Part shown: positions 4,397 through 51,174 of the stretch, piece after piece
Position numbering within the stretch: the stretch's first letter is position 1
How the letters are laid out: every line of letters starts with the position of its first letter
Source: Bradymonadia bacterium
GTDB lineage: Bacteria; Myxococcota_A; Bradymonadia; UBA7976; UBA1532
Assembly (NCBI GenBank): GCA_046290225.1
Contig: JBKAGE010000036.1
Location: forward strand, 352,001 to 416,000
Reading direction: 5' to 3'
Length of the DNA stretch: 64,000 nucleotides
Notes under the pieces: generated by a model
Database searches by the model: none
The model's input: the letters and a program-made list of their open reading frames with translations, nothing else
Told to the model about the DNA's origin: nothing
Translations under genes and position numbers: made by a program

Positions 4397-4728
4397 GTCG
4401 CTCCGCTGGCAAGAGAGTTTCGGGCACGGGCAAGGGCACGGGCACGGGCACGAGTTGATTCGGGTGTGGACCCGTGGTCCTGCATGATTCAGGACGAAGG
4501 TTGTCATTGAAGCTGAGACGGTACGCTTCGAAATGGCCTGAGAGTTCAGATCTTGGGGTGTATGGACCTCAAAACCTCCACTGAGGAGAGCGTGGGGCCG
4601 AGCAAAGCCTCCAACATCACAGACCCACGAGCGGAGTCATGCTGGGCCACGGGTCCACACCCGAATCAACTCGTGCCCGTGCCCGTGCCCTTGCCCGTGC
4701 CCGAAAACTGATCTGCGAGCGAAGCGAG
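4397..4728. repeat. Hairpin (MITE/REPIN-like) element, copy 1, with (GGGCAC)n arms
   Basis: Perfect 60-bp inverted repeat 4418-4477 / 4647-4706. The ~170-bp core is homologous (reverse complement) to 9538-9720. Right end TCTGCGAGCGAAGCGAG is shared with copy 2. Confidence 0.9.
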
Positions 4729-4804
4729 GATCTCTTCCCCTCCCATGTGACACCCTGACCACAACCGGACTCTCCCCCAACACAAGCACAACACCGAGCC
4801 CTCC

Positions 4805-5443
4805 ATGCCCCAGGCCCCCGAGCACGCCGACATCGCCTTCGCCCACGCCCTCGCCAATGGCGAGCGCGAGGCCGTGGTGCGTTTCGAGGCGCAGTATCGA
4901 CGGGTTATCCGGCATGCCCTCGGCGTGGCCATTCGGCGGTGGAAGCCCGAATCACCGGTGGAGCCCGAAGACTTCGTCCAGGACTTCATCGGCTTTTTGT
5001 TCACCGACAGAGGCCGTCGCCTGCGGAGCTTCGAGGGCCGTTCTTCCTTTGGTGGGTGGCTCTACACCGTAGCGTTGAGGCACTTCCAACGCGCCCTGTC
5101 CAAGCTCGCGAAGGACAGGCGCTCGGAGGTCGTCCTCACCCGGCTGCCCGAGCGCGAGGAGCGGCGACCTGACCACCTCGCAGCGGTGGCTGCCGACGCA
5201 GAGCGCTTGCGGGCGGTGGTGGGGCAGTTGCCAGAGCGTGATCGGCTTTATGTGCGCCTGTTCTATGTCGAAGGCCTCAACGCCAGCGAAGTGGCGCGCA
5301 CCCTCGGCAAGCGACCCTCAGCAGTGCGCATGCACAAGATGAGACTCCTGGAACGCCTGCGGGTGATGCTCGACGAGCCCCCGGAGGAGACCACCTCGAC
5401 GAGACCCGAGGCCACACGCCGTCGGGTCGGGGAGGATCCATGA
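4805..5443 (+). CDS. ECF-family RNA polymerase sigma factor
   Basis: Region 2-like EDFVQD...FEGRSSFGGWLYTVA and region 4-like LPERDRLYVRLFYVEGLNASEVARTLG; 212 aa. Confidence 0.9.
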   Translation: MPQAPEHADIAFAHALANGEREAVVRFEAQYRRVIRHALGVAIRRWKPESPVEPEDFVQDFIGFLFTDRGRRLRSFEGRSSFGGWLYTVALRHFQRALSKLAKDRRSEVVLTRLPEREERRPDHLAAVAADAERLRAVVGQLPERDRLYVRLFYVEGLNASEVARTLGKRPSAVRMHKMRLLERLRVMLDEPPEETTSTRPEATRRRVGEDP

Positions 5444-6543
5444 CCCACGAGCGACTGGAAGCTCGACTCAGAGTGCTCGACATGCAGTGGGACTCTGTGG
5501 GCGAGCACCTCGACGAGGCCGCGCTGCTCGAGATCGTCGGCGGGCGGGCGCCCGAGCCCCATGAAGCGGCCCACCTGGCCAGCTGCGACGAATGCACAGA
5601 GCTGCTCATCGTGCTCGGTGTTGGCCTCGAAGCCCTCGCTGCGGACATCCCCGAGGCCGCGGCCATGGTGCCGTTGGGCAACGCAGAGACACCCGTTGAG
5701 CCCCTGACAGAGGCACCCCTCGAGCATGCTGCTGGCCAGACGCCAGAATCACCTCCTGTATCTGGGGGCAAGCTCCTCTATCTCCCTCGGCCTGTGAAGT
5801 GGCTGATGATGGTGGCCATCGTCGCTGGGGTGGCCTTTGCAGGACACTCCACGTTGTCACCCTCTGCAACGGTACAAAATCTCGCGACGGCGACCCGAGA
5901 CCTGCCCACCCTCGAAGCGGCCCCAGCGCCATCAACCCAGATCGCCCCAGTACAACTCGCCCCAGTACAACTCGCCCCAGTACAACTCGCCACAGCACCC
6001 GCTCGACCTCTTCGTCCTGTGGAGGAGGTCGCCTCTCTGCCACATCCTCCGGTGCCTCGAGTCAAACGCTCCCTGGCCCTTCCCCCGCTTTCTCAACGCT
6101 CAGGTGTCGAAGATCTCACCCCAGCACCGCCTTCAGGCTGGTCTCCGCCTCCTGCGGTTGAGACGCCCAAAGTGATTGCCGAGGTACAGGCGCCTCGGCG
6201 TCGGATACGCAGAGCTCGCCGAGTCGCTCCAGATGTCGTCGAGGACACACCATTTCGGCGTCCGGGGCCCTCTGCACCCATCTCGGGCCGTCCCAGAGCC
6301 TTTGGCCAGCTGCAGTTGATCAGCAAGCCCCCCTCACGGGTCTACATCGACGGGCGAGATCGGGGCTGGACCCCCATCGTGAATCTGCGGCTGCCCGAAG
6401 GCCCCCACGACATCCGGCTGGTGTACTCGCACCCTCGGGCACGACAGGCCGAGGAGACATTCCGGGTGGTGATTCCGCCAGATAAAACCTGGCGGATCTC
6501 GCGGGACAACCTCGGCCCTGCTCGTGGCGGTGTGGGGCCCTGA
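5440..6543 (+). CDS. Putative zinc-binding anti-sigma factor with TM helix, Pro-rich linker and C-terminal PEGA domain
   Basis: HLASCDEC (HxxxCxxC ZAS motif), hydrophobic WLMMVAIVAGVAFAG, PEGA-like SRVYIDGRDRGWTPIVNLRLPEGPHDIRL; ATGA overlap with the sigma gene. Confidence 0.8.
   Translation: MTHERLEARLRVLDMQWDSVGEHLDEAALLEIVGGRAPEPHEAAHLASCDECTELLIVLGVGLEALAADIPEAAAMVPLGNAETPVEPLTEAPLEHAAGQTPESPPVSGGKLLYLPRPVKWLMMVAIVAGVAFAGHSTLSPSATVQNLATATRDLPTLEAAPAPSTQIAPVQLAPVQLAPVQLATAPARPLRPVEEVASLPHPPVPRVKRSLALPPLSQRSGVEDLTPAPPSGWSPPPAVETPKVIAEVQAPRRRIRRARRVAPDVVEDTPFRRPGPSAPISGRPRAFGQLQLISKPPSRVYIDGRDRGWTPIVNLRLPEGPHDIRLVYSHPRARQAEETFRVVIPPDKTWRISRDNLGPARGGVGP
5942..5991 (+). repeat. 15-bp tandem repeat x3 encoding APVQL
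   Basis: TCGCCCCAGTACAAC repeated exactly three times inside the anti-sigma gene. Confidence 0.9.
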
Positions 6544-6663
6544 CGCCCCGGGCGGAAGGGGCACTGGTCAGGACGCTTGTCACCAGCCACATCCCTGGGG
6601 CGGGCCCCGTCGCCTTGATGCACCCGCAGGCCTTTGGCATTGTTTGTGAAGTTCGAGAGGCTC

Positions 6664-6679
6664 TCGGTACATGTACCGA
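6664..6679. promoter_or_regulatory. Perfect 16-bp palindrome, possible operator
   Basis: TCGGTACATGTACCGA lies about 20 bp upstream of the AGGAG ribosome-binding site of the next gene. Confidence 0.35.
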
Positions 6680-6711
6680 TCCGAGCCGCTTCCCCTTCCA
6701 AGGAGTTCACA

Positions 6712-9306
6712 GTGCGTCGATCTGCATCGAGCCCCCTCCTCCCGGCGCTTCTCGCCGCGGCCACCACCCTGGCCGTCTGCCCCACGGCGAACGCCAACGT
6801 GACGCCCTTCGGAGAGCGGGTCAACGAGGCCATCGAGCGTGGCCTGACCTACCTGAGGAACATCCAACAGGGGAACGGCCGCTTCGGCGACAACAACACC
6901 TCTGGCGGGCCCACGGGCCTGGCGCTCCTAGCGTTCTTGGAGAAGCGGGCCAGCGCTGACTGGAACGCCGCTCACGTGGGCTATGAGAACTCCAGCCCTG
7001 ATGATCAGCAGCGCATCCGCAACGGGGTGCGCCACTGCATCGACAACGTGCCGGGCTTCCGAGGCGGCAACCCCTACTCCTACACCACGGGCTCATGCCT
7101 CATGGCCCTGAGCCTCTATCTCACCACCGGCGGCCCCAATGACGTAGGGGCAGGCGCCGCGGTGAACACCGCGGTGAACAACGCCGTGAATGCCCTGCGC
7201 AACACCCAGGGCAGCCAGGGCTCCAACCAGGGTGGCTGGAACTACACCACGCCCGACAGCAATGGCGATCTCTCCACGACGCAGTTCTCCATGGCAGGCC
7301 TCGCCGCGGCGGTCTCGGTGCGCCCGGACGCCGGCGACACCCTGCCCCTGGCGGTGAGCTTCGTCACCAACGCCAAGAACGGTGACGGCGGCCACAAGTA
7401 CCGCAGCGGAGGCAACTACAACAGCACCTCGGCGATGTCGGCCTCGGGCCTCTGGACCTACCGCCTCGCGGGCCTGCCCACGAGCGACGATCGGGTGCAG
7501 TCCGCCCTTGGCTGGCTGCAGAGCAACTATCGCTACAACAGCCTGATCACCATCAACGGTTGGCAGAGCCAGTACTACTACCTCTGGGCCGCCGCGAAGG
7601 GCTTCGAGGTGACCCCCGATGATGGCAATGGGGCAGCGATCTACGCCGACAACATCGGCGGCGTGCGCGATCCTGCCGGCGACGGGTTCCCCGAAGAAGC
7701 TCCGAACTGGTACTACGACTTCGCCTGGTACCTCATGGACGTACAGGCAGGGAACGGCAGCTGGGGCAGCAACCCCGGCAGCTGGGACGTCACCGCAGCA
7801 ACCTCGTACTCCATCCTCGTGCTGCAGCGCTCCCTCGGCGGGGTCTGCATCCTCGACGAGGACATGGACGACTTCTGCGACACCCTCGAAGACAACTGCC
7901 CCGGCATCCCCAACCCTGATCAGGCCGATCAAGACGGCGACGGCATCGGCGATGTCTGCGACAACTGTCCCGAGGAGGCCAACGTCGATCAGGTCGATGA
8001 GGACGCCGACGGCATCGGTGACGCCTGCGACGACATCATCTGTGTGCCCGACGGCAACCCAGATCTCTGCGACGGGCTGGACAACGACTGCGACGGCGAG
8101 GTGGACGAAGGTCCCGACGGCGCCGCTCCGGTGGCCCCGGGCACCTGCGCAACGGGCCTGCCGGGCCTCTGCGCCACGGGTCAGCGCGCCTGCATCGACG
8201 GCGAGGTGGTCTGTGAGCCCGACAACGAGCCCACGGACGACATCTGCGATCTCTACGACAACGACTGCGACGGCATGATCGATGAGGGGCTCTACAACGT
8301 CTGCGGCACCTGCGGCGAGGTCCCTCAGGAAGAGTGCAATGGCATCGACGACGACTGCGACGGCACCATCGACGAGGGTGGCGATCTCTGCGACATCGGC
8401 GCCACCTGCGCTCAGGGCGACTGCCGCACCAACTGCCCGGATCGTGAGTGTCTCAACGGCGGTGAGTTCTGTGATCCTGATCTGCTGCTCTGTGGCGAGG
8501 CCTGTGAGCTGGTGGAGTGTGGCTTCGGTCTCGCCTGTGATCCGCAAACGAATCAGTGCTTCGACCCCTGCGCTGGCGTGAGCTGTGGCGACGGCGAGCG
8601 CTGCTGGCTCGGCGACTGCGTGCCCAATGACTGTGAGTACACGGGCTGTGAAGCGGGCAGCATCTGCGACGGCAACGAGTGTGTGCCTGATCCCTGCGCA
8701 GCGGCGGAGTGCGAAGAAGGCGAGTTCTGTCGTGGTGGTCAGTGTATCCCCAGCTGCGCTCAGGTCAGCTGCACCTTCGGTGAGGTCTGTGTTGATGGCG
8801 CCTGTGTAGAGGATCCGTGTGGCGGGGTCACCTGCCCCGACGGCGAGGCCTGCATCGACGGCTTCTGCGAGGCTGATCCCTGTGAGGGTGTGAACGATTG
8901 TGGTGAGAACCAGTTCTGCCTGAACGGCGAGTGCATCTTCGATCCCTGCACCGACGTGGCCTGTCCTCCGGGGCAAACCTGTGAGGTGCGCCAGGGGACG
9001 GCCCAGTGCATCCGCATCGTTCAGCCCGAGCCGATGATGCCCCCTGGCCCCGACATGGGGGTCGGCGGCGCCGGTGGCATGGGCGGTATGGGCGGCGCTG
9101 GTGGATTCGGTGCTGGCCCTGGCGGTGCGGGTGGCACCGGCGGTGGTGGCATCACGCCTCCGCCCCCGGCACCTGACTCCGGCGTGGACGATGGCGGCTC
9201 TGGCGACGAGGCTGGGGGCTGCAACTGTGATGCTTCGACGGGCGGTGGTGCCTCCGGGCTCTGGCTGCTGGTCTTGGGCCTGGGGCTGTTGCGTCGGCGG
9301 CGCTGA
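6712..9306 (+). CDS. Large surface protein: prenyltransferase/squalene-cyclase-like helical barrel, TSP3-like Ca-binding repeats, [10 protein letters not shown] repeats, Cys-rich repeats, MYXO-CTERM-like tail
   Basis: AGGAG then GTG at 6712 and a signal peptide. QW-like motifs (QGGWNY, QAGNGSW), [24 protein letters not shown], three CxxxDxDCDG motifs, C-terminal GCNC...[16 protein letters not shown]. Confidence 0.85.
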
Positions 9307-9359
9307 GCTCTTCTATTGGGCTCTATCTGCAGCTCAGAATAAGTCTGACAGGTGTAGGA

Positions 9360-9794
9360 CTCGCTTCGCTCGCAGAGAGAGTTTTTCGGGCACGGGCACG
9401 GGCACGGGCACGGGCACGAGTTTCACGGGTGTGGACAGTGCAGCCTGAGGCTGCATGTCTTGGAGCGAGTGTAGGCCTGCGTAGCCGGCCGGAGGGAGCG
9501 GAAAGACACCCGGAGGGCTGTCCACTGGTCAACCTGACCCATGGCCCTGCATGACTCCGCTCGTGGGTGTGTGATGGTGGAGGCTCCACTCGGCCCCATG
9601 TGTCTCTCATTGGAGGTTTTGACCTCCATACACCCCAAGACCTGAACTCTCAGGTCGTTCTGAAACGCATCATTCCAGCGTCAGTCGTAGCCTTTGCCCT
9701 GAGTCATGCAGGGCCACGGGTTCACACCCGTAAAACTCGTGCCCGTGCCCGTGCCCGTGCCCGTGCCCGAAAACTGATCTGCGAGCGAAGCGAG
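9360..9794. repeat. Hairpin (MITE/REPIN-like) element, copy 2, with internal ~100-bp insert
   Basis: Terminal 17-bp perfect IR CTCGCTTCGCTCGCAGA (9360-9376) / TCTGCGAGCGAAGCGAG (9778-9794). (GGGCAC)5 / (GTGCCC)5 arms. Core homologous to copy 1 in opposite orientation. Confidence 0.9.
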
Positions 9795-9829
9795 CCCACC
9801 CCCATCACACCAACAACGTAGAAGTCTAC

Positions 9830-10624
9830 TCAATCCAGCTTGAGCGCCCGCAACTCAGTCGGCCTCATCCAAGCACCCGCACCATTCGGGAGAATGATGC
9901 CCACCCAGCCCTCTTCCTCCCCACGCACTTGCACCTTCACCCCAGCGTACACCTCGGCCACCGTTTTGTAGTTCGACTCCGGGCCCACCTTGGCCAGGGC
10001 CTTGTCGGCGATCACGATGGCGTAGGTGTTCTGGCTCACCACCAACTCGCGACCCAGGATCAAGCCCCCGGACGCCAGAGCGCCGAGGCCGACCAGCACC
10101 GCCGAGAACATCAACGCAGTGCGGCGACCCCCCACGGCATAGCGAATGGCCAACAGCAGCGCGAAGAGTGTCGTCCAGAACACAGCCGCCATGATCGTCA
10201 GCGTGCTCGGAGACAACGCCATGAAGAGATCAGTGCTCGTATCTGACTGACCAGGCACGATGCGTTTTTGATCGCTGCCCTCAGCGCCGATGCGTTCGAG
10301 CACCTGATCGGTGACCACCTTGAGGTTGTGTTGCGCGTCGGCATCTTCGGGGCGCAACAGCAAGGCTTGCTCGAAGGCCCACACGGCCTTGCCCAGATCC
10401 CCTGCCCCAGCGTGGGCGTTGCCGAGATTGAAGTACACATCAGCATTGCGGACCCCGGCGTCGATCACCTGACCATAGGTGGCGATGGCCTGCCTGTGTT
10501 TGCCTTGCCAGAACGCCTCGTTGCCCGCCTTGAAGTCTTCGACAGGGCCGCCGTGGGCCAGAGTGGCTGTCAGCCCGAGGGCCAGGGTGATGATGCACGC
10601 TTTGAGCACAGCGCTTTTGCTCAT
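9830..10624 (-). CDS. BatE-like TPR + TM + SH3-like protein
   Basis: Signal peptide, TPR (DVYFNLGNAH...AVWAFEQALLLRPEDADAQHNL), two TM helices, SH3b-like C-terminus (GW..I.LPNG..GAW); last gene of the Bat-like operon. Confidence 0.82.
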   Translation of the reverse strand: MSKSAVLKACIITLALGLTATLAHGGPVEDFKAGNEAFWQGKHRQAIATYGQVIDAGVRNADVYFNLGNAHAGAGDLGKAVWAFEQALLLRPEDADAQHNLKVVTDQVLERIGAEGSDQKRIVPGQSDTSTDLFMALSPSTLTIMAAVFWTTLFALLLAIRYAVGGRRTALMFSAVLVGLGALASGGLILGRELVVSQNTYAIVIADKALAKVGPESNYKTVAEVYAGVKVQVRGEEEGWVGIILPNGAGAWMRPTELRALKLD

Positions 10625-12408: not shown

Positions 12409-14325
12409 TCAGTAGTCCTCCATCTGGGGCACTGAAGGCAGGTTGCGCAACATCTTCTCGAGCTGGGGGTTCCCTGGCTGCTCGTCGAGGGCGTCGATGA
12501 GTTGTTGTACGTCCACCTGCTCTTCATCTTTGGGCTGCTGTTCTTGGTCCTGTTGCTCATCCTGATCCTGATCTTGTTGCTGATCCTGATCCTGTTGCTG
12601 GTCCTGATCCTGTTGGTCCTGCTGCTCATCCTGATCTTGTTGATCCTGATTTTGCTGCTGGTCCTGGTTCTGATCCTGGCCAGACTCCTGGGGCGGCTTG
12701 AAGGTGACGTCGTAGGTGTTCTCTTTCTCTGCGGTGGTCACCCTGGCGAGGAACACACGCTCGTCGTCGGCCTCTTTGAAGCTGAGCATCTGGCCTTGCT
12801 GGTTCTGGCGAGCTTTGCGCAGCATGGTCTTGCCGTCTACATCGTAGAGCTCGACGTCGAGCAGCGCCCGCTCGGTGTCGTGGACCACGGTGAACTCCAT
12901 GGCCTCGTCGGCGGGGACCGTGAACTTGAACCAGTCAGCATCCCCGACACACGACTTCAGGCCACGAACGGCTTCTCCTTCGACGGCTGTGGCAGCATCG
13001 GGTACGTCGTTCTCTTCGTGGGCATCGTCGGCGGGGCACGGCGGCGCCACCTCGACCTTCACGGTGTAGTTCAGCTCACCACGACCTTTGCCCATGATGC
13101 GAAACGCCCAGGTGCCTTCTTCGTCGACGATGCGCACCCCGAGGCGGGCCTTGCCCTTGACGAACTTCGAGACGTTGGCCAGTCGCATGCCCGCCTCGGT
13201 AGGCTGGTACAGCAGAACCTCGGCCTCTCGCTCTGCCCCCCAGGCCTCGTCGACCTCGCCGCTCACGGTGACGAAGAGCCCCTCGTTGACCCCCACCGGC
13301 ACGGCGAACCAGTCCTCGTCGTCGGGACAAAGAATGTACTCCGCAGGCTGGGGCTCCTCGCCCTGACCCGGAGGCGCCCCAGGTTGGCCCTGGGCCTGTG
13401 TGGGAGGCAGCGGTGGCTTGGCCTGGAACAACGAGTCGTCTTCCTCGTGGGGATCATCCCGCTCGGCGCAGGGGGGCAGCGCCTCGAGGGTGATGCCATA
13501 GCTGATCTCGGCCTTGCCGGGACCGGCGAGCTGCACCAGCCAGGTCCCCGAGGTGGGCAGCTCCGCCACGCCGATACGCGCCTCACCGCCCTCAAGCTTC
13601 ACAGTGCGCATGGGCGCATTGCCGTTGGGGGCGTAGAGGTTCACCACCGCATCGCGGGTGTCGTCTTCTTCGGCCTCGATCGAATGGTTGATCACCACCC
13701 GGAGAGCGCCACCGGCCTGAGCCTCCACGGCGTACCAGTCCTCGTCCGCAGGGCACAGCAGCCGATCTTTCTGGGGGCCTTCCTGCTCGGCGTCCTGTGG
13801 AGGTGCCTCGAGGGGCTTTGCCTGGCCCCGGGCGTCGTCGGGCTCGTGATCATCGTCCCGGACCGAGCACGGCGGATGCAGCTTGAACCACGCCAGCTCG
13901 AGGTTCCAACGCGCGTCTTCGTCCTCGGGGTGGATTTTGAGGACCTCCCCAAAGAGACGATGGGCCTTGGACCAGTCTTCTTTCTCAAGGGCCAGCAGGC
14001 CCCGGGCGAACGCGATGCGGGCCTTGAGGTCGAGCAGCTCTGGGGGTTTGGGATCTTCGGCCTCGATGAGAGCATCGAGGGTCTGCCGCCACGCCAAATC
14101 GAGTGAGGTGCTCGCGGCCTCGCCGTTGTCCGTGGCCATTTGAGCGAGGCCCCGGGCGAAGTGCACTTCTGGGGCATCGTCGTCCACGCGGCCGAGGGCG
14201 TCGATGGCCCCCTGGCCATCCTGTGCAGCGAGGCGCCGCCCCGCCTCGTCCACATCTCCATCGGCGCAGACAAAGGGCCCGAAACCCACAAGCCAGAGCG
14301 CAGTCAACGCGATCTTGAGCCTCAC
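12409..14325 (-). CDS. BatC-position protein: TPR, three PPC-like repeats, Gln/Asp-rich tail
   Basis: PEDEDARWNLELA TPR end; three PPC..DD.HE.(D/N)D...C..D.DW repeats; QD-rich tail ending EDY; located between batB- and batD-like genes. Confidence 0.72.
   Translation of the reverse strand: MRLKIALTALWLVGFGPFVCADGDVDEAGRRLAAQDGQGAIDALGRVDDDAPEVHFARGLAQMATDNGEAASTSLDLAWRQTLDALIEAEDPKPPELLDLKARIAFARGLLALEKEDWSKAHRLFGEVLKIHPEDEDARWNLELAWFKLHPPCSVRDDDHEPDDARGQAKPLEAPPQDAEQEGPQKDRLLCPADEDWYAVEAQAGGALRVVINHSIEAEEDDTRDAVVNLYAPNGNAPMRTVKLEGGEARIGVAELPTSGTWLVQLAGPGKAEISYGITLEALPPCAERDDPHEEDDSLFQAKPPLPPTQAQGQPGAPPGQGEEPQPAEYILCPDDEDWFAVPVGVNEGLFVTVSGEVDEAWGAEREAEVLLYQPTEAGMRLANVSKFVKGKARLGVRIVDEEGTWAFRIMGKGRGELNYTVKVEVAPPCPADDAHEENDVPDAATAVEGEAVRGLKSCVGDADWFKFTVPADEAMEFTVVHDTERALLDVELYDVDGKTMLRKARQNQQGQMLSFKEADDERVFLARVTTAEKENTYDVTFKPPQESGQDQNQDQQQNQDQQDQDEQQDQQDQDQQQDQDQQQDQDQDEQQDQEQQPKDEEQVDVQQLIDALDEQPGNPQLEKMLRNLPSVPQMEDY
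12536..12680 (-). repeat. Low-complexity CAG/GAT(C) repeats encoding (QDQQQ)n
   Basis: Repeated TGATCCTG/TGCTG units within the CDS. Confidence 0.8.
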
Positions 14326-37429: not shown

Positions 37430-40237
37430 ATCAGCAAGCCACTCGTCATTGTGGAGTCTCCGGCCAAGGCCAAGACCATCGGTAAGTACCTCGGTGACGG
37501 TTTCCACGTGGAAGCCTCCGTGGGTCACGTCCGTGATCTCCCCGAGACCGCTCGGGACATCCCCGAGTCCGTCAAGAAGGAGAAGTGGGCCCGGACCGGC
37601 GTCAACGTCGAGAAGGACTTCGACCCGCTCTATGTGCTCACGACCCGAGGTCGGGAGACCATCAAGAAGCTCAAGCCGCTGGTGAAGCAGGCCCCTGAGA
37701 TCTACCTCGCCACCGATGAAGATCGCGAAGGTGAGGCCATCGCCTGGCATCTGTTCGAGGTGCTCAAGCCCAAGGTGCCCGTGAAGCGGATGGTGTTCCA
37801 CGAGATCACCCCCCGGGCCATCAAGGCTGCCATGGCAGCCCCCCGCACCCTGGATATGCAACTCGTACGGGCCCAGGAGACGCGGCGCATCATCGACCGC
37901 CTCTTCGGATACAACGTGTCGCCCGTGCTCTGGCGCAAGGTGCGGCCCAAGCTCTCCGCGGGTCGGGTGCAGTCTGTCGCTGTGCGCCTCATCGTGGCCC
38001 GGGAGCGGGCCCGGCTGAAGTTCGTCGCCGCCAGCTGGTGGGATCTCGACGCGAAGTTCACCACGGACAAGGGCCCCTACCAGGGCACGCTCACCGAGCT
38101 CGGTGGCCAGCGCCTCGCTCAGGGCCGGGACTTCGACCCGGACACAGGCAAGCTCAAGAGCAGCGGCGACAACGCCCCCTTGATCCTCGACGAGGCCACG
38201 GCCACAGCCATCGCCAAGGCCCTCGAAGGTGTCACGGGCGCCGTGAGCGAGGTCACCCGCACCCCCTTCAAGGAGCGGCCCTCGCCCCCCTTCACCACCT
38301 CGACGCTTCAACAAGAGGCCAACCGCAAGCTGCGGTGGTCGGCGCGGCGCACCATGAATGCCGCGCAGAGGCTGTACGAGAACGGGTGGATCACCTACAT
38401 GCGTACGGACTCCACCCACTTGTCTCCCGAGGCCATCAACCTGGCCCGGAACACGATCACCAGTCGGTACGGCGCGCAGTTCCTGCCGCCGTCTCCGCGG
38501 TACTACAAGACCTCGGCCAAGGGTGCTCAGGAAGCACACGAGGCGATCCGCCCTGCAGGGGACACCATCAAGGATCCGAGTGCATGTGCTCGGGATCTCG
38601 GCGATGACGAGGCCCGGCTCTACAGCCTCATCGTCAAGCGCACGCTCGCCTGCCAGATGGCCGACGCCACCGGGGTGCGCATGACCCTCGACACCGAGGT
38701 GCCCACCCCCACCCACGGCGCGGCGCGGTTCCGCGCCACGGGCAAGAGCTACACCTTCCAGGGCTTCCGTCGGGCGTACATCGAGGGCAACGACGACGGC
38801 GCAGAGGGTGGCGAAGTCGACAGCAAGGGCGCCAGCAACGAGCGCCTGCTCCCCGACCTGAACGAGGGTGATGCCTCGACGGTGAGCAGCTCCGACGCCA
38901 AGGGTCACACCACTCAGCCCCCTTCCCGGCTCACCGACGCCTCTCTCGTGAAGGAGCTGGAGTCCCGGGGCATTGGCCGGCCGAGTACCTACGCCTCGAT
39001 CATCGAGACCATCGAGCGACGCAAGTACGTCTTCAAGCGCGGCACCGCCCTGATCCCCACCTGGACGGCCTTCGCGGTGACCAATCTGCTCGAGCAGCAC
39101 TTCGATCACCTCGTGAACTACCAGTTCACTGCGCAGCTTGAGAGCGGCCTCGACAACATCGCCGAGGGCGAGCGCGATCCAGTGGCGTACATGCGGGCCT
39201 TCTACGAGGGTGCCGGCGGTGAGGCCGCAGATCATAGCCGCGTAGGTCTCGTCGCTCTCATCGACAAGGCCCAGGAGGAGGCAGATCCTCGGGCGATTTG
39301 TTCGATCCCCATCGGCAACGTCGAAGGGGTAGACATCGTGGCCCGTGTGGGCCGCTACGGGCCCTTCATCGAGCACAATGGGGTCACCGTCTCGCTCCCT
39401 GACGATCTCGCCCCAGATGAGCTGACCATGGGCAAGGCCCAGGAGCTCATCCAGGCCGCCGCTGAGGGGCCGAGGGTGCTGGGTCAGGATCCGGCGACGG
39501 GCCTCAACGTCACCGTACAGATCGGTCGATTCGGCCACTATGTACAGCTCGGTGAGACCGAAGAAGGCAAGAAGACCAAGCCCAAGCGGGAGAGTCTGCT
39601 CAAGGGCATGGACCCCGCCACCATCGATCTCGAGACCGCGCTCAAGCTGCTGTCGCTCCCCCGAGAGCTGGGCAACGACAAAGAGGGCAACCCCATCCAC
39701 GCCCTCAACGGCCGCTACGGGGCCTACATCAAAGCCGGCAAGGAGTCCCGCAGCCTGCCTGACGGCGTCACCCCTCTCGACGTGACGTTGGAGCAGGCCC
39801 TCGAGCTGCTGGCCAAGCCCTCCGGGCGCCGGGCCGCAGCGGCGGTGCTGGCCGAGCTGGGTCAGGATCCAGAGGGCGCAGCCATCGTGGTGAAGAGCGG
39901 TCGCTATGGCCCCTATGTCACCGACGGCACGGTGAACGCCACGTTGCCCAAGGGCACTGATCCCGCAGCACTGTCCCTCGCGGACGCCCTGGCCCTCATC
40001 GAGAAGAAGCGCGCCTCGGCACCGGCCAAAAAGGGTCGCAGGAAGACTGCAGCGAAGAAGCCCGCCGCAAAGAAAGCACCCGCCAAGAAGCCCGCAGCCA
40101 AGAAGACGACTGCGAAGAAGACGACCGTGAAGAAGCCTGCAGCCAAGAAGACGGCGGCCAAAAAGCCTGCAGCGAAGAAGCCCGCTGCGAAGAAAGCACC
40201 CGCCAAGAAGCCCGCAGCCCCCGACGACGCTTCCTGA
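37430..40237 (+). CDS. topA: DNA topoisomerase I (type IA) with Toprim_C repeats and Lys/Ala-rich tail
   Basis: LVIVESPAKAKTI, ATDEDREGEAIAWH, SAGRVQS, ITYMRTDS, GIGRPSTY, GRYGPY repeats. Start placed at ATC 37430 after GAGGAG; the ORF track starts at GTG 37451 inside the conserved motif. Confidence 0.96.
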   Translation: MSKPLVIVESPAKAKTIGKYLGDGFHVEASVGHVRDLPETARDIPESVKKEKWARTGVNVEKDFDPLYVLTTRGRETIKKLKPLVKQAPEIYLATDEDREGEAIAWHLFEVLKPKVPVKRMVFHEITPRAIKAAMAAPRTLDMQLVRAQETRRIIDRLFGYNVSPVLWRKVRPKLSAGRVQSVAVRLIVARERARLKFVAASWWDLDAKFTTDKGPYQGTLTELGGQRLAQGRDFDPDTGKLKSSGDNAPLILDEATATAIAKALEGVTGAVSEVTRTPFKERPSPPFTTSTLQQEANRKLRWSARRTMNAAQRLYENGWITYMRTDSTHLSPEAINLARNTITSRYGAQFLPPSPRYYKTSAKGAQEAHEAIRPAGDTIKDPSACARDLGDDEARLYSLIVKRTLACQMADATGVRMTLDTEVPTPTHGAARFRATGKSYTFQGFRRAYIEGNDDGAEGGEVDSKGASNERLLPDLNEGDASTVSSSDAKGHTTQPPSRLTDASLVKELESRGIGRPSTYASIIETIERRKYVFKRGTALIPTWTAFAVTNLLEQHFDHLVNYQFTAQLESGLDNIAEGERDPVAYMRAFYEGAGGEAADHSRVGLVALIDKAQEEADPRAICSIPIGNVEGVDIVARVGRYGPFIEHNGVTVSLPDDLAPDELTMGKAQELIQAAAEGPRVLGQDPATGLNVTVQIGRFGHYVQLGETEEGKKTKPKRESLLKGMDPATIDLETALKLLSLPRELGNDKEGNPIHALNGRYGAYIKAGKESRSLPDGVTPLDVTLEQALELLAKPSGRRAAAAVLAELGQDPEGAAIVVKSGRYGPYVTDGTVNATLPKGTDPAALSLADALALIEKKRASAPAKKGRRKTAAKKPAAKKAPAKKPAAKKTTAKKTTVKKPAAKKTAAKKPAAKKPAAKKAPAKKPAAPDDAS
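40027..40218 (+). repeat. KKPAA/KKTTA pentapeptide repeats in the TopA tail
   Basis: Repeated AAGAAGCCCGCAGCC-like units. Confidence 0.85.
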
Positions 40238-40255
40238 GCCGGACGTGGCCCCACG

Positions 40256-49689: not shown

Positions 49690-51174
49690 TCAATCTCGAT
49701 GCAGCCAGAGCAGCCCGGCCCCCGTGTCGAGATCTCCGCCGTCACCCACCCACTCCTGCCAACGCTCGTCGCTGGGGAATGCCAGCTCGGCATTCATGTA
49801 GGTCACGTAGGCTGAGGTTCGGCCGTTGTTGAGCAGATAGCCTGATCGGAAGCGGGTGATGTACCGCTTGTAGACATTGAAGTACTCCACCGGCCCTGCG
49901 AGCCCACGGCCTGCGGAGTCGAAGGTCATGTAGTACGAGTCGTTGCCCCAGGCGTGATGCACCATGATCTCGTCGCCCCCGCCATTGGCGATGGTTTCGA
50001 GTTCGTGATCCACCTGAACGAAAATCACCGGATCACCATCCATGGGCAGCCGCCAGAGCTTGTGACGACCCGCCCGGCCCGCGATGACGTGGCCCTCGTC
50101 ATCGAGGGCGAAGCCCACGCTCACCTTGCGGTTGTTGAAGTCGGACCCATCTTCGGGCAGTTGCAGAGAGCCGAGATATTCGCCCTCGAGGTTCCACTGC
50201 GGAATCATCCCATAGGCGACGTTGTCCCCGAGCAGCACTCCACGGTTGGCGTCCCAGATCAGATGGAACGGACCATAGTTGTACATGTTGTCGTAGAGGG
50301 GGTTGCCCTCGAAGTCGGTCATGGTGAAGTCCGTGAGGCGCCGACCATCTGGCCCCAACCGGATGACCTCGGCAGGCTGCTCGTTGCTGCCCCGACCGCT
50401 CACCACGAACCCGCCCCCCTGTGATTCGGGGAGGGCGATGATGTCGTGCACACCGTTCTCGGTCCCCTGGGCAAAGCGCCCGAGCCGACGCCCGTCGCTG
50501 CCATAGGCGAGGATGGCGCCAGTGCGCCCGTCACCGATGAGGACGTCGCCCCAAACGGGTATCTGAACCTCGACCCGGCCCGCACACGTGCCATCAGGGC
50601 GCAGGCCTTCCACCTGCACGGTGACCGGGCCCGTCCACCAGGGCCACTGCAGATCGCTGCCTGGGGTGTACCGAACGGTGTCACCTACAGACGTGAGGGT
50701 GCCGCCCTCCACCGCTTCGGCGACGAGCTCGAGGGTCTCGACGCCGTCAGCGCTCAGGGTGATGACCTGCCCACGATCGATGGGGCCCTCTGCATCGAGA
50801 CGTACCTGAAATTCAGCAACCTCCGGGCAATCCACGAGGCCACCACCAACGCCGCCCATGCCACCACCACCGGCCTCGCCTCCAGCACCGGCGACACCGC
50901 CGCCCATACCCCCAGCGCCACCGCCAGCGCCTCCTCCCCCACCATCACCGGCGCCTCCGCCAGCGCCACCGGCGACGCCTCCACCAGCGCCACCAGCGAT
51001 GCCGCCTCCAGCGCCTCCGCCACCACCGGCGACCGAAGCATCTGCAGCGCCTGCGGCGCCTCCGGAGCCAGCATCTGGGGCATCTCCAGCATCACTGACT
51101 TCCTGGCAACCCAGGAGGGCAGCCAGCGCACTCGTCATCATCAAAGGCGTGAAGGAGAGAGATCGAATCTTCAT
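49690..51174 (-). CDS. Lipoprotein with Gly-rich linker and probable beta-propeller
   Basis: Lipobox LLGC, GGAGG repeats, blade-like repeats (YGSDGRRLGRF, LGPDGRRL, WNLEGEYLG, FDSAGRGL). Confidence 0.72.
   Translation of the reverse strand: MKIRSLSFTPLMMTSALAALLGCQEVSDAGDAPDAGSGGAAGAADASVAGGGGGAGGGIAGGAGGGVAGGAGGGAGDGGGGGAGGGAGGMGGGVAGAGGEAGGGGMGGVGGGLVDCPEVAEFQVRLDAEGPIDRGQVITLSADGVETLELVAEAVEGGTLTSVGDTVRYTPGSDLQWPWWTGPVTVQVEGLRPDGTCAGRVEVQIPVWGDVLIGDGRTGAILAYGSDGRRLGRFAQGTENGVHDIIALPESQGGGFVVSGRGSNEQPAEVIRLGPDGRRLTDFTMTDFEGNPLYDNMYNYGPFHLIWDANRGVLLGDNVAYGMIPQWNLEGEYLGSLQLPEDGSDFNNRKVSVGFALDDEGHVIAGRAGRHKLWRLPMDGDPVIFVQVDHELETIANGGGDEIMVHHAWGNDSYYMTFDSAGRGLAGPVEYFNVYKRYITRFRSGYLLNNGRTSAYVTYMNAELAFPSDERWQEWVGDGGDLDTGAGLLWLHRD

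Follow-up and report, generated by a model that had tools for sequence, protein, structure and literature searches.

The intergenic fold-back elements described here carry arrays of GGGCAC-type hexamers, mostly five, in their inverted arms, and the genes beside them are short of cytosine (C) on one strand, a deficit (the halo) that lies on the GGGCAC strand whatever the orientation of the gene relative to the element. The window analysed is a stretch of 64,000 nucleotides (nt) from a Bradymonadia bacterium, G000:C36:352001-416000, where G000 is the genome of the window and other G numbers are related genomes, and it contains two complete gene-less elements, copy 1 and copy 2. Elsewhere in G000 an element with the same arms encloses a gene of the PF05635/TIGR02436 family, whose product is a predicted pentamer. 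Our preferred reading, to which we give about an even chance of being right, is that the arm is a polar single-strand site read by this pentamer and that the element has spread by recombination. Whichever rival is preferred instead, the halo is a directional footprint of mutation that still calls for an explanation.

The halo was measured as C at four-fold degenerate sites, counted on the GGGCAC strand. In the 66 genes that end at an arm it rises from 0.16 within 100 nt of the arm through 0.31, 0.38, 0.44 and 0.47 to 0.50 in bins reaching to 1000 nt, compared to 0.47-0.50 at control gene ends (n=1853), and the effect fades by about 500 nt from the arm. For the 38 genes that start at an arm the same strand is now antisense, and its C content is 0.15-0.18 versus 0.27-0.30. 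Taken gene by gene, C is lower near the arm than far from it in 69 of 72 cases, and in 19 of 20 among genes transcribed away from the element; in control genes this holds for 60-63%, with a difference of 0.03. Copy 2 of the window gives an example. In the TPR/SH3 protein gene on its right, C falls from 0.51 to 0.28 near the arm, and the depleted zone occupies the 3' part of the gene (9830..10270, minus strand; 0.26 up to 250 nt, 0.31 up to 500 nt and 0.55 beyond). A milder zone is found in the 3' part of the MYXO-CTERM protein gene on the left (8890..9306, plus strand; 0.40, 0.47 and 0.59 in the same three bins). In 19 orthologues of the TPR/SH3 gene that have no array within 400 nt (one flank is incomplete) the change ranges from -0.16 to +0.37, and the halo is absent from the orthologous gene end in these genomes.

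The direction of the hexamer word can be separated from the geometry of the hairpin in the related genomes G019 and G110, which belong to another genus, because most of their pairs face outward. The skew of G over C on the G strand, taken from 32 overlapping loci in G019 and 20 regions in G110, is +0.30 (21 flanks) and +0.28 (8 flanks) over the 100 nt next to the word on its 5' side and is gone by 500-700 nt, as opposed to +0.06 (43 flanks) and 0.00 (36 flanks) on the 3' side. A halo running both ways from the word is thus not borne out in either genome. Outward-facing palindromic pairs in these genomes have no halo on their outer flanks, and single arms do have one. The single arms of G000 also show the 5' halo, and since single arms have it a partner arm is not needed. 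No halo was found beside 22 unique perfect hairpins, which are much shorter than the elements, or beside 50 copies of another repeat rich in mini-hairpins (family B), and the latter result led us to reject mini-hairpins as the cause.

In the gene-bearing element (G000:C72:82298-83330) the arms are unchanged, each side has two 102-nt modules, and an intact PF05635/TIGR02436 gene takes the place of the core. This protein family is widespread and has no assigned function outside diversity-generating retroelements (DGRs). The product of 117 residues is modelled as a four-helix bundle with a predicted local distance difference test score (pLDDT) of 92, and such a bundle is not known to have a catalytic site. 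The closest structures to the model are 2GSC, with a template modelling (TM) score of 0.89, 2RLD and the DGR protein Avd (0.76-0.80), and both 2GSC and 2RLD contain five chains. The second PF05635 gene of the genome (C77, frameshifted) lies within different arms, which too have a gene-less family, and both four-helix-bundle genes of G000 are therefore enclosed by fold-back arms of this kind.

Relatives of the C72 gene in several phyla are also flanked by GGG-type hexamer arrays. Among the best 80 of 380 related gene loci in species genomes, tandem arrays of 6-7-mers occur on at least one side at 68, on both sides at 30 and inverted on both sides at 25; the corresponding counts in 65 control windows are 11, 1 and 0. 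In a quick tree of 81 proteins (excluding one fragment, two duplicate rows and 20 Chlamydiae copies that are nearly identical) the proteins with GGG-type words group apart from those with CGT-type words, with 13 changes versus 26.4 when shuffled, which we read as clustering only because kin share words. At the residue following NIAEG(A/S)G the GGG-word clade has E, and most CGT-word proteins have K or R, which from the alignment makes it a candidate specificity position, confounded with phylogeny. Within the 113 genomes of the class, array matches number 116 in G000, 37 in G110, 35 in G019 and one in G029, and G000, G019 and G110 have the three best scores to the clade profile (181, 171 and 169 bits; the next is 144). 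In G019 and G110 the arrays form mosaic clusters of GGGCAC, GGTCAA and GGGCAA words, with outward-facing pairs and no conserved core. One Chlamydiae genome (contigs CAWCVY01) contributes 21 of the 80 loci as near-identical PF05635 genes, several of them with stops.

Repeated exposure of single-stranded DNA together with deamination leaves a C deficit on one strand, and the shortage seen here is likely the trace of a site at which that strand becomes single-stranded again and again. We infer such exposure because the deficit is one-stranded, independent of the direction of transcription and dependent on which way the arm faces. It is likely that the GGGCAC strand is left single-stranded 5' of each arm, with the arm as the directional site, and the five hexamers are probably read by the predicted pentamer. 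The protein would bind the array with one unit per subunit. If the arm or the DNA close to it were then nicked or broken and the other strand removed or displaced, the G-rich strand 5' of the arm would be exposed; its cytosines would deaminate, and under the G+C bias of the genome mainly G would come back at these sites. With the opposite arm or another copy as the template, repair would give matched arms and mosaic cores, and could occasionally seed a new copy in the gap behind a gene. In Avd, all five subunits contact one RNA stem-loop, with flipped-out bases between the subunits (bioRxiv 10.1101/2023.10.23.563531). A bolder version of the proposal is possible, though on balance we find it doubtful: that the TIGR02436 pentamer is a sequence-specific reader of the five hexamers, making the arrays directional single-strand sites and driving a selfish repeat free of any transposase, which is spread by host recombination and rewrites neighbouring codons on one strand, and that this recognition of a hairpin by a pentamer is ancestral to target recognition in DGRs.

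Recombination fits the matched arms and mosaic cores. A 14-nt inner block is the same in both arms in 15 of 34 simple elements, versus 2.1 when shuffled, and the class of end agrees between arms in 24 of 40, versus 11.7 expected. Arm type is independent of the core (Mantel r of -0.11 and 0.00). Within the core, linkage (r2) drops from 0.22 to 0.04 with distance and all four combinations are present at 781 of 806 distant site pairs. The copies are old, with a median core distance of 0.24 and 0.043 for the closest pair.

There are a number of results that sit poorly with our proposal. The single arms of G000 are also skewed on their 3' side (+0.32), which is mostly non-coding remnant, and strict polarity is weakened because of this. 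Two other fold-back families of the genome, families 2 and 3, have a similar halo although they contain no hexamers, and the halo can therefore arise without the hexamer. The skew predicted for gene cassettes in other phyla was seen in 19 of 32, 2 of 7 and 11 of 20 cases. The co-occurrence of gene and array in the class covers two genera, and in G019 and G110 the gene is flanked by opposite-facing GGGCAA arrays of 4-9 units and not by (GGGCAC)5. In the Chlamydiae genome, 20 of the 21 gene copies lie within a larger repeated element that ends sharply and, judged by eye, resembles an IS5-type remnant; the gene can therefore be a passenger, and these copies were not counted as evidence that it moves itself. 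An old star-like expansion with repeated mutation could account for part of the four-gamete failure. Finally, a mobilising enzyme may have escaped notice, as neither multi-copy elements nor contigs shorter than about 1 kb are represented in the assembly.

The family goes far beyond the two copies of the window. G000 has 131 arms, in 49 inward-facing pairs and 33 single arms, and the core is present in 45 of the 49 paired elements. From outside to inside an arm consists of an optional end motif, a junction, the array and an inner arm with a variable block. Among the 121 arms without an interrupting insertion, the junction is of the AGAGAGTT type in 100 and of the AGATCAGTT type in 16 (together 116), and the array has five units in 94, five also being the mode in G019 and G110. 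The end motif, GC-GNA-GC or GC-GNNA-GC (mini-hairpin GCGNAGC/GCGNNAGC), is found on the outward-reading strand at 81 of the 121 ends, at none on the other strand and at 6 in the next window outward. Forty other genomes searched with copy 1 gave matches to the hexamer arm alone and never to the core, and there were no matches in metagenome scans with the arm and with the end of an inserted element, or in a viral scan with the array, from all of which close relatives may be missing.

The first-pass annotation had placed the two intergenic elements correctly and had described their inverted five-hexamer arrays around a core, all of which we recovered. Copy 1 (4397..4728) is flanked by divergent putA-like and extracytoplasmic function (ECF) sigma factor genes. 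Its left end motif, GC-GGA-GC, is of the DNA mini-hairpin type on the outward-reading strand (4400..4406, minus), and a junction of the AGAGAGTT type (4413..4421, plus) stands immediately outside the left array (4422..4451, plus). There follow an inner arm whose variable block matches the opposite arm (4452..4487, plus), a non-coding core of about 150 nt that is mosaic among copies and has internal hairpins nearly without covariation (4488..4636, minus), the right array (4673..4702, minus) and a right end motif GC-GAA-GC on the outward-reading strand (4719..4725, plus). Copy 2 (9360..9794) lies between the convergent MYXO-CTERM and TPR/SH3 genes and has GC-GAA-GC end motifs on the left (9363..9369, minus) and right (9785..9791, plus), a left array (9388..9417, plus), a non-coding core (9553..9700, plus) and a right array (9739..9768, minus). 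The match to MYXO-CTERM points to a probable host akin to the myxobacteria. All four arrays have five units. The two cores run in opposite directions, with 81% complementarity across 195 nt, which confirms the reverse-complement alignment noted at first. Folding z-scores are -17.8 for copy 1 and -14.3 for copy 2, with 0 of 100 shuffles equally stable. The layout claimed to be common to both copies stands overall, except that copy 2 has an added 102-nt module M (9434..9535, plus), which also lines both arms of the gene-bearing element in two tandem copies each and is itself a repeat (36 BLAST pieces in the genome). The shared type of end does not extend to the left end of copy 1, which is another variant, GTCGCTCCGCTGG, and not of the CTCGCTTCGCTCGCAG type.

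Several other repeats and insertions touch on this family. Family 2 (G000:C77:107001-107863 and 38 other pairs; of the 39 found, 37 were aligned) consists of fold-backs of about 515 bp with 190-bp mini-hairpin arms and a 135-nt core, and its pattern is again one four-helix-bundle gene plus gene-less copies. Whole arms of family 2 show no greater likeness within a copy than between copies (0.75 versus 0.78); greater likeness within a copy is confined to the outer 40 nt (0.60 versus 0.50). Family 3 (20 pairs, such as G000 C4:14982-15390 and C37:373716-374124) consists of fold-backs of about 400 bp with GTAG-bearing tandem arms that often abut a stop codon, and no gene-bearing copy was found in the assembly. 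One palindromic piece of about 170 nt is inserted both in a family 3 core (C78:372732-372944) and in a family 2 core (C34:360658-361347). The hexamer-family core has no cross-match to these mutually related cores, and a relationship to them was rejected. Family B is a one-directional repeat of about 170 nt at 50 loci (for example G000 C75:41891-42060) that starts with a GTGCACGTGCCC-like relic and ends at the 3' end of a gene at all 40 loci with a called neighbour. The hexamer arrays are themselves the target of an insertion element that is absent from the assembly and visible at contig ends (for example G000 C72:60-110, C35:1-97 and C4:80937-81034): all 14 left and all 10 right junctions are within an array, always with the same orientation and register; two bases are repeated, and terminal inverted repeats are absent. 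We take it to resemble the IS110 type. The IS110 profile PF01548 has no match in G000, because the body of this element is missing from the assembly. Other insertion sequences or their ends lie within cores (G000:C50:55563-57123, C12:5876-6231 and C10:51759-52031), the one in C50 with a transposase-like frame and a short direct repeat. The low-complexity coding repeats of the window (12409-14325, 40027-40240 and 50835-51057; Gln/Asp, PAAKK-type and Gly/Ala-rich) are ordinary.

That the elements are a repeated, gene-less and non-autonomous-looking family of no described kind, as was first suspected, agrees with the dozens of copies, the single gene-bearing copy with the same arms and the absence of any Rfam match at the gathering threshold. 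One rival explanation takes this further and holds that they are like REPINs (doublets of repetitive extragenic palindromic, REP, sequences) or TIRtrons, that a HUH or other transposase has been lost or was not assembled, that the four-helix-bundle gene is cargo and that the halo is a by-product of single-strand cutting by the transposase. We consider this unlikely, though it has a good deal in common with what we see. One master with gene-less doublets and two arm orientations is the arrangement of REPINs (PMC3337134) and TIRtrons (PMC3733652), the ends are DNA mini-hairpins, GTAG-bearing units occur in families 2 and 3, which have their junction motif in common with the hexamer family, multi-copy elements were dropped from the assembly and the gene is cargo in the Chlamydiae genome. 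However, the profiles of the Y1 transposases and of the REP-associated tyrosine transposases (RAYTs), PF01797 and NF047646, have no match in the 99.4% complete assembly, although this is not proof of absence because multi-copy elements are unassembled. The GTAG and GTGG tetramers, from which the first-pass annotation had drawn a REP/RAYT lead, are present at copy 2 (GTAG at 9354-9357; GTGG at 9796-9799, minus strand) but are not family-wide: within 14 nt of the end motif GTAG is found in 4, GTGG in 15 and GGGG in 36 of 81 arms, and the flanks are generally G-rich. The lead is therefore not supported. The enclosure of both four-helix-bundle genes of G000 by such arms, and the joint travel of gene clade and word across phyla, also argue against cargo. 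The suggestion of a MITE-type element fared no better, as no target-site duplication was found at 40 elements, where the longest flank match is the same as in shuffles. A cognate transposase with the same ends was not found; arm pairs enclose only the PF05635 gene and one transposase-like insertion in a core. The core is not a decayed four-helix-bundle gene either, since the clade profile matches only the two such genes of the genome. A look for filled and empty sites in one low-depth DNA run, on two stretches, gave only short pieces, with neither a bridging contig nor an informative junction.

A second rival, which we hold to be quite unlikely, places the element at the RNA level, either as a stem cut by RNase III in the manner of an intervening sequence (IVS) or as a terminator or stabiliser where mRNAs end. 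The protein would then bind the RNA stem, and the C deficit would come from R-loops during transcription or from selection on the mRNA. The long stem does covary: an alignment of 33 simple copies has 13 base pairs with two-sided changes, and 12 of these belong to the terminal stem. Elements are also enriched between convergent genes. With our own gene caller, the neighbours of the 38 pairs called on both sides are convergent in 17, co-directional in 17 and divergent in 4, and the convergent share among all gene pairs of the genome is 17%. In Coxiella the 23S IVS carries a gene of this family along with tandem heptamers, and RNase III cuts its terminal stem (PMC4990558); the binding of an RNA stem-loop by all five Avd subunits, mentioned above, points the same way. 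Against this, the halo follows the GGGCAC strand whichever way the gene points, the orientation of the core does not follow transcription (9 with, 6 against), mismatches in the stem are G-U in 30 cases and A-C in 22, and the end motifs are of a type that is highly stable as DNA and less so as RNA (PMC13037366). The structured RNA proposed at first is not supported for the core, as only 1 of 20 base pairs across three core hairpins has a two-sided change.

The least probable explanation is that the elements are passive palindromes, old remnants whose symmetry is kept by template switching and which host hairpin nucleases break, with resection giving the halo and no element-specific protein today; it would suit the age of the copies, the matched arms (expected from quasi-palindrome correction) and the polarity of the halo in G000, which is that of resection from a central break, but it does not suit the outward pairs of G019 and G110 without a halo on their outer flanks, the single arms with one, the 22 unique perfect hairpins without one (much shorter as these are) or the unit number held at five.

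Returning to the reading of the arm as a polar site read by a pentamer, the locus offers a candidate ligand in the form of a five-unit hexamer array, for which the words of other clades are built-in controls, and an in vivo readout that can be measured, the one-sided C deficit over about 500 nt. If the reading is true, this would be a bacterial repeat system run by neither a HUH nor a DDE transposase, with host genes altered by a mutation bias that is local and strand-specific, and it would give a lead on nucleic-acid recognition by Avd-type pentamers.

Our search of full-text literature, whose coverage lacks most subscription journals and supplements, returned no description of this combination of features. 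MITEs, the miniature inverted-repeat transposable elements of DDE insertion sequences, are short and non-coding with long terminal inverted repeats and many copies. The present elements are alike in their short length, non-coding core, long terminal inverted repeats and copy number, but have no target duplication, no sharp outer end and no transposase with these ends. Chi-type polar sites are directional words with a single-stranded tail on the 5' side, and in TRAP-type RNA rings a ring protein is matched to the number of repeats; the likeness of both to the arms is an analogy only. On defining tests of each, the element departs both from REPINs and TIRtrons and from open reading frame (ORF)-bearing 23S IVSs. 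It resembles REPIN-RAYT and TIRtron-TIRYT systems (PMC3337134, PMC3733652) in the master gene between arms, the many extragenic gene-less doublets with inverted units that form a hairpin, the two arm orientations, the tandem modules and the role as a target for an insertion sequence. It differs in that the master is a four-helix bundle and not a HUH tyrosine transposase, in having no conserved GTAG tag and in the halo, which the available parts of those two papers do not describe. With the ORF-bearing 23S IVS (S23p, PF05635; Coxiella, PMC4990558) it shares the protein family encoded within a terminal stem, as in the C72 element though not in the two gene-less window copies, and short tandem repeats by the gene. 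This family, however, lies between protein genes and not in the 23S rRNA gene, with dozens of gene-less copies, five-hexamer arms, DNA-type end hairpins and a strand-specific C deficit in its neighbours. As for DGRs, neither a reverse transcriptase in or beside the cassette nor a template or variable repeat was seen. The two reverse-transcriptase genes of the genome are unlinked and were rejected as partners; they are convergent and retron-like by eye, with a short family 2 remnant between them (G000:C79:178175-181442). A DNA hairpin whose loop is GRNA or GRA is required at DGR targets (PMC3240598, PMC4372165), and here 60 of the 81 end loops are GGA or GAA, on stems of 2 bp compared to 7-10 bp in DGR hairpins. 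Avd is alike in fold to the protein modelled here, and a relationship between PF05635 and Avd has been described (PMC10053308).

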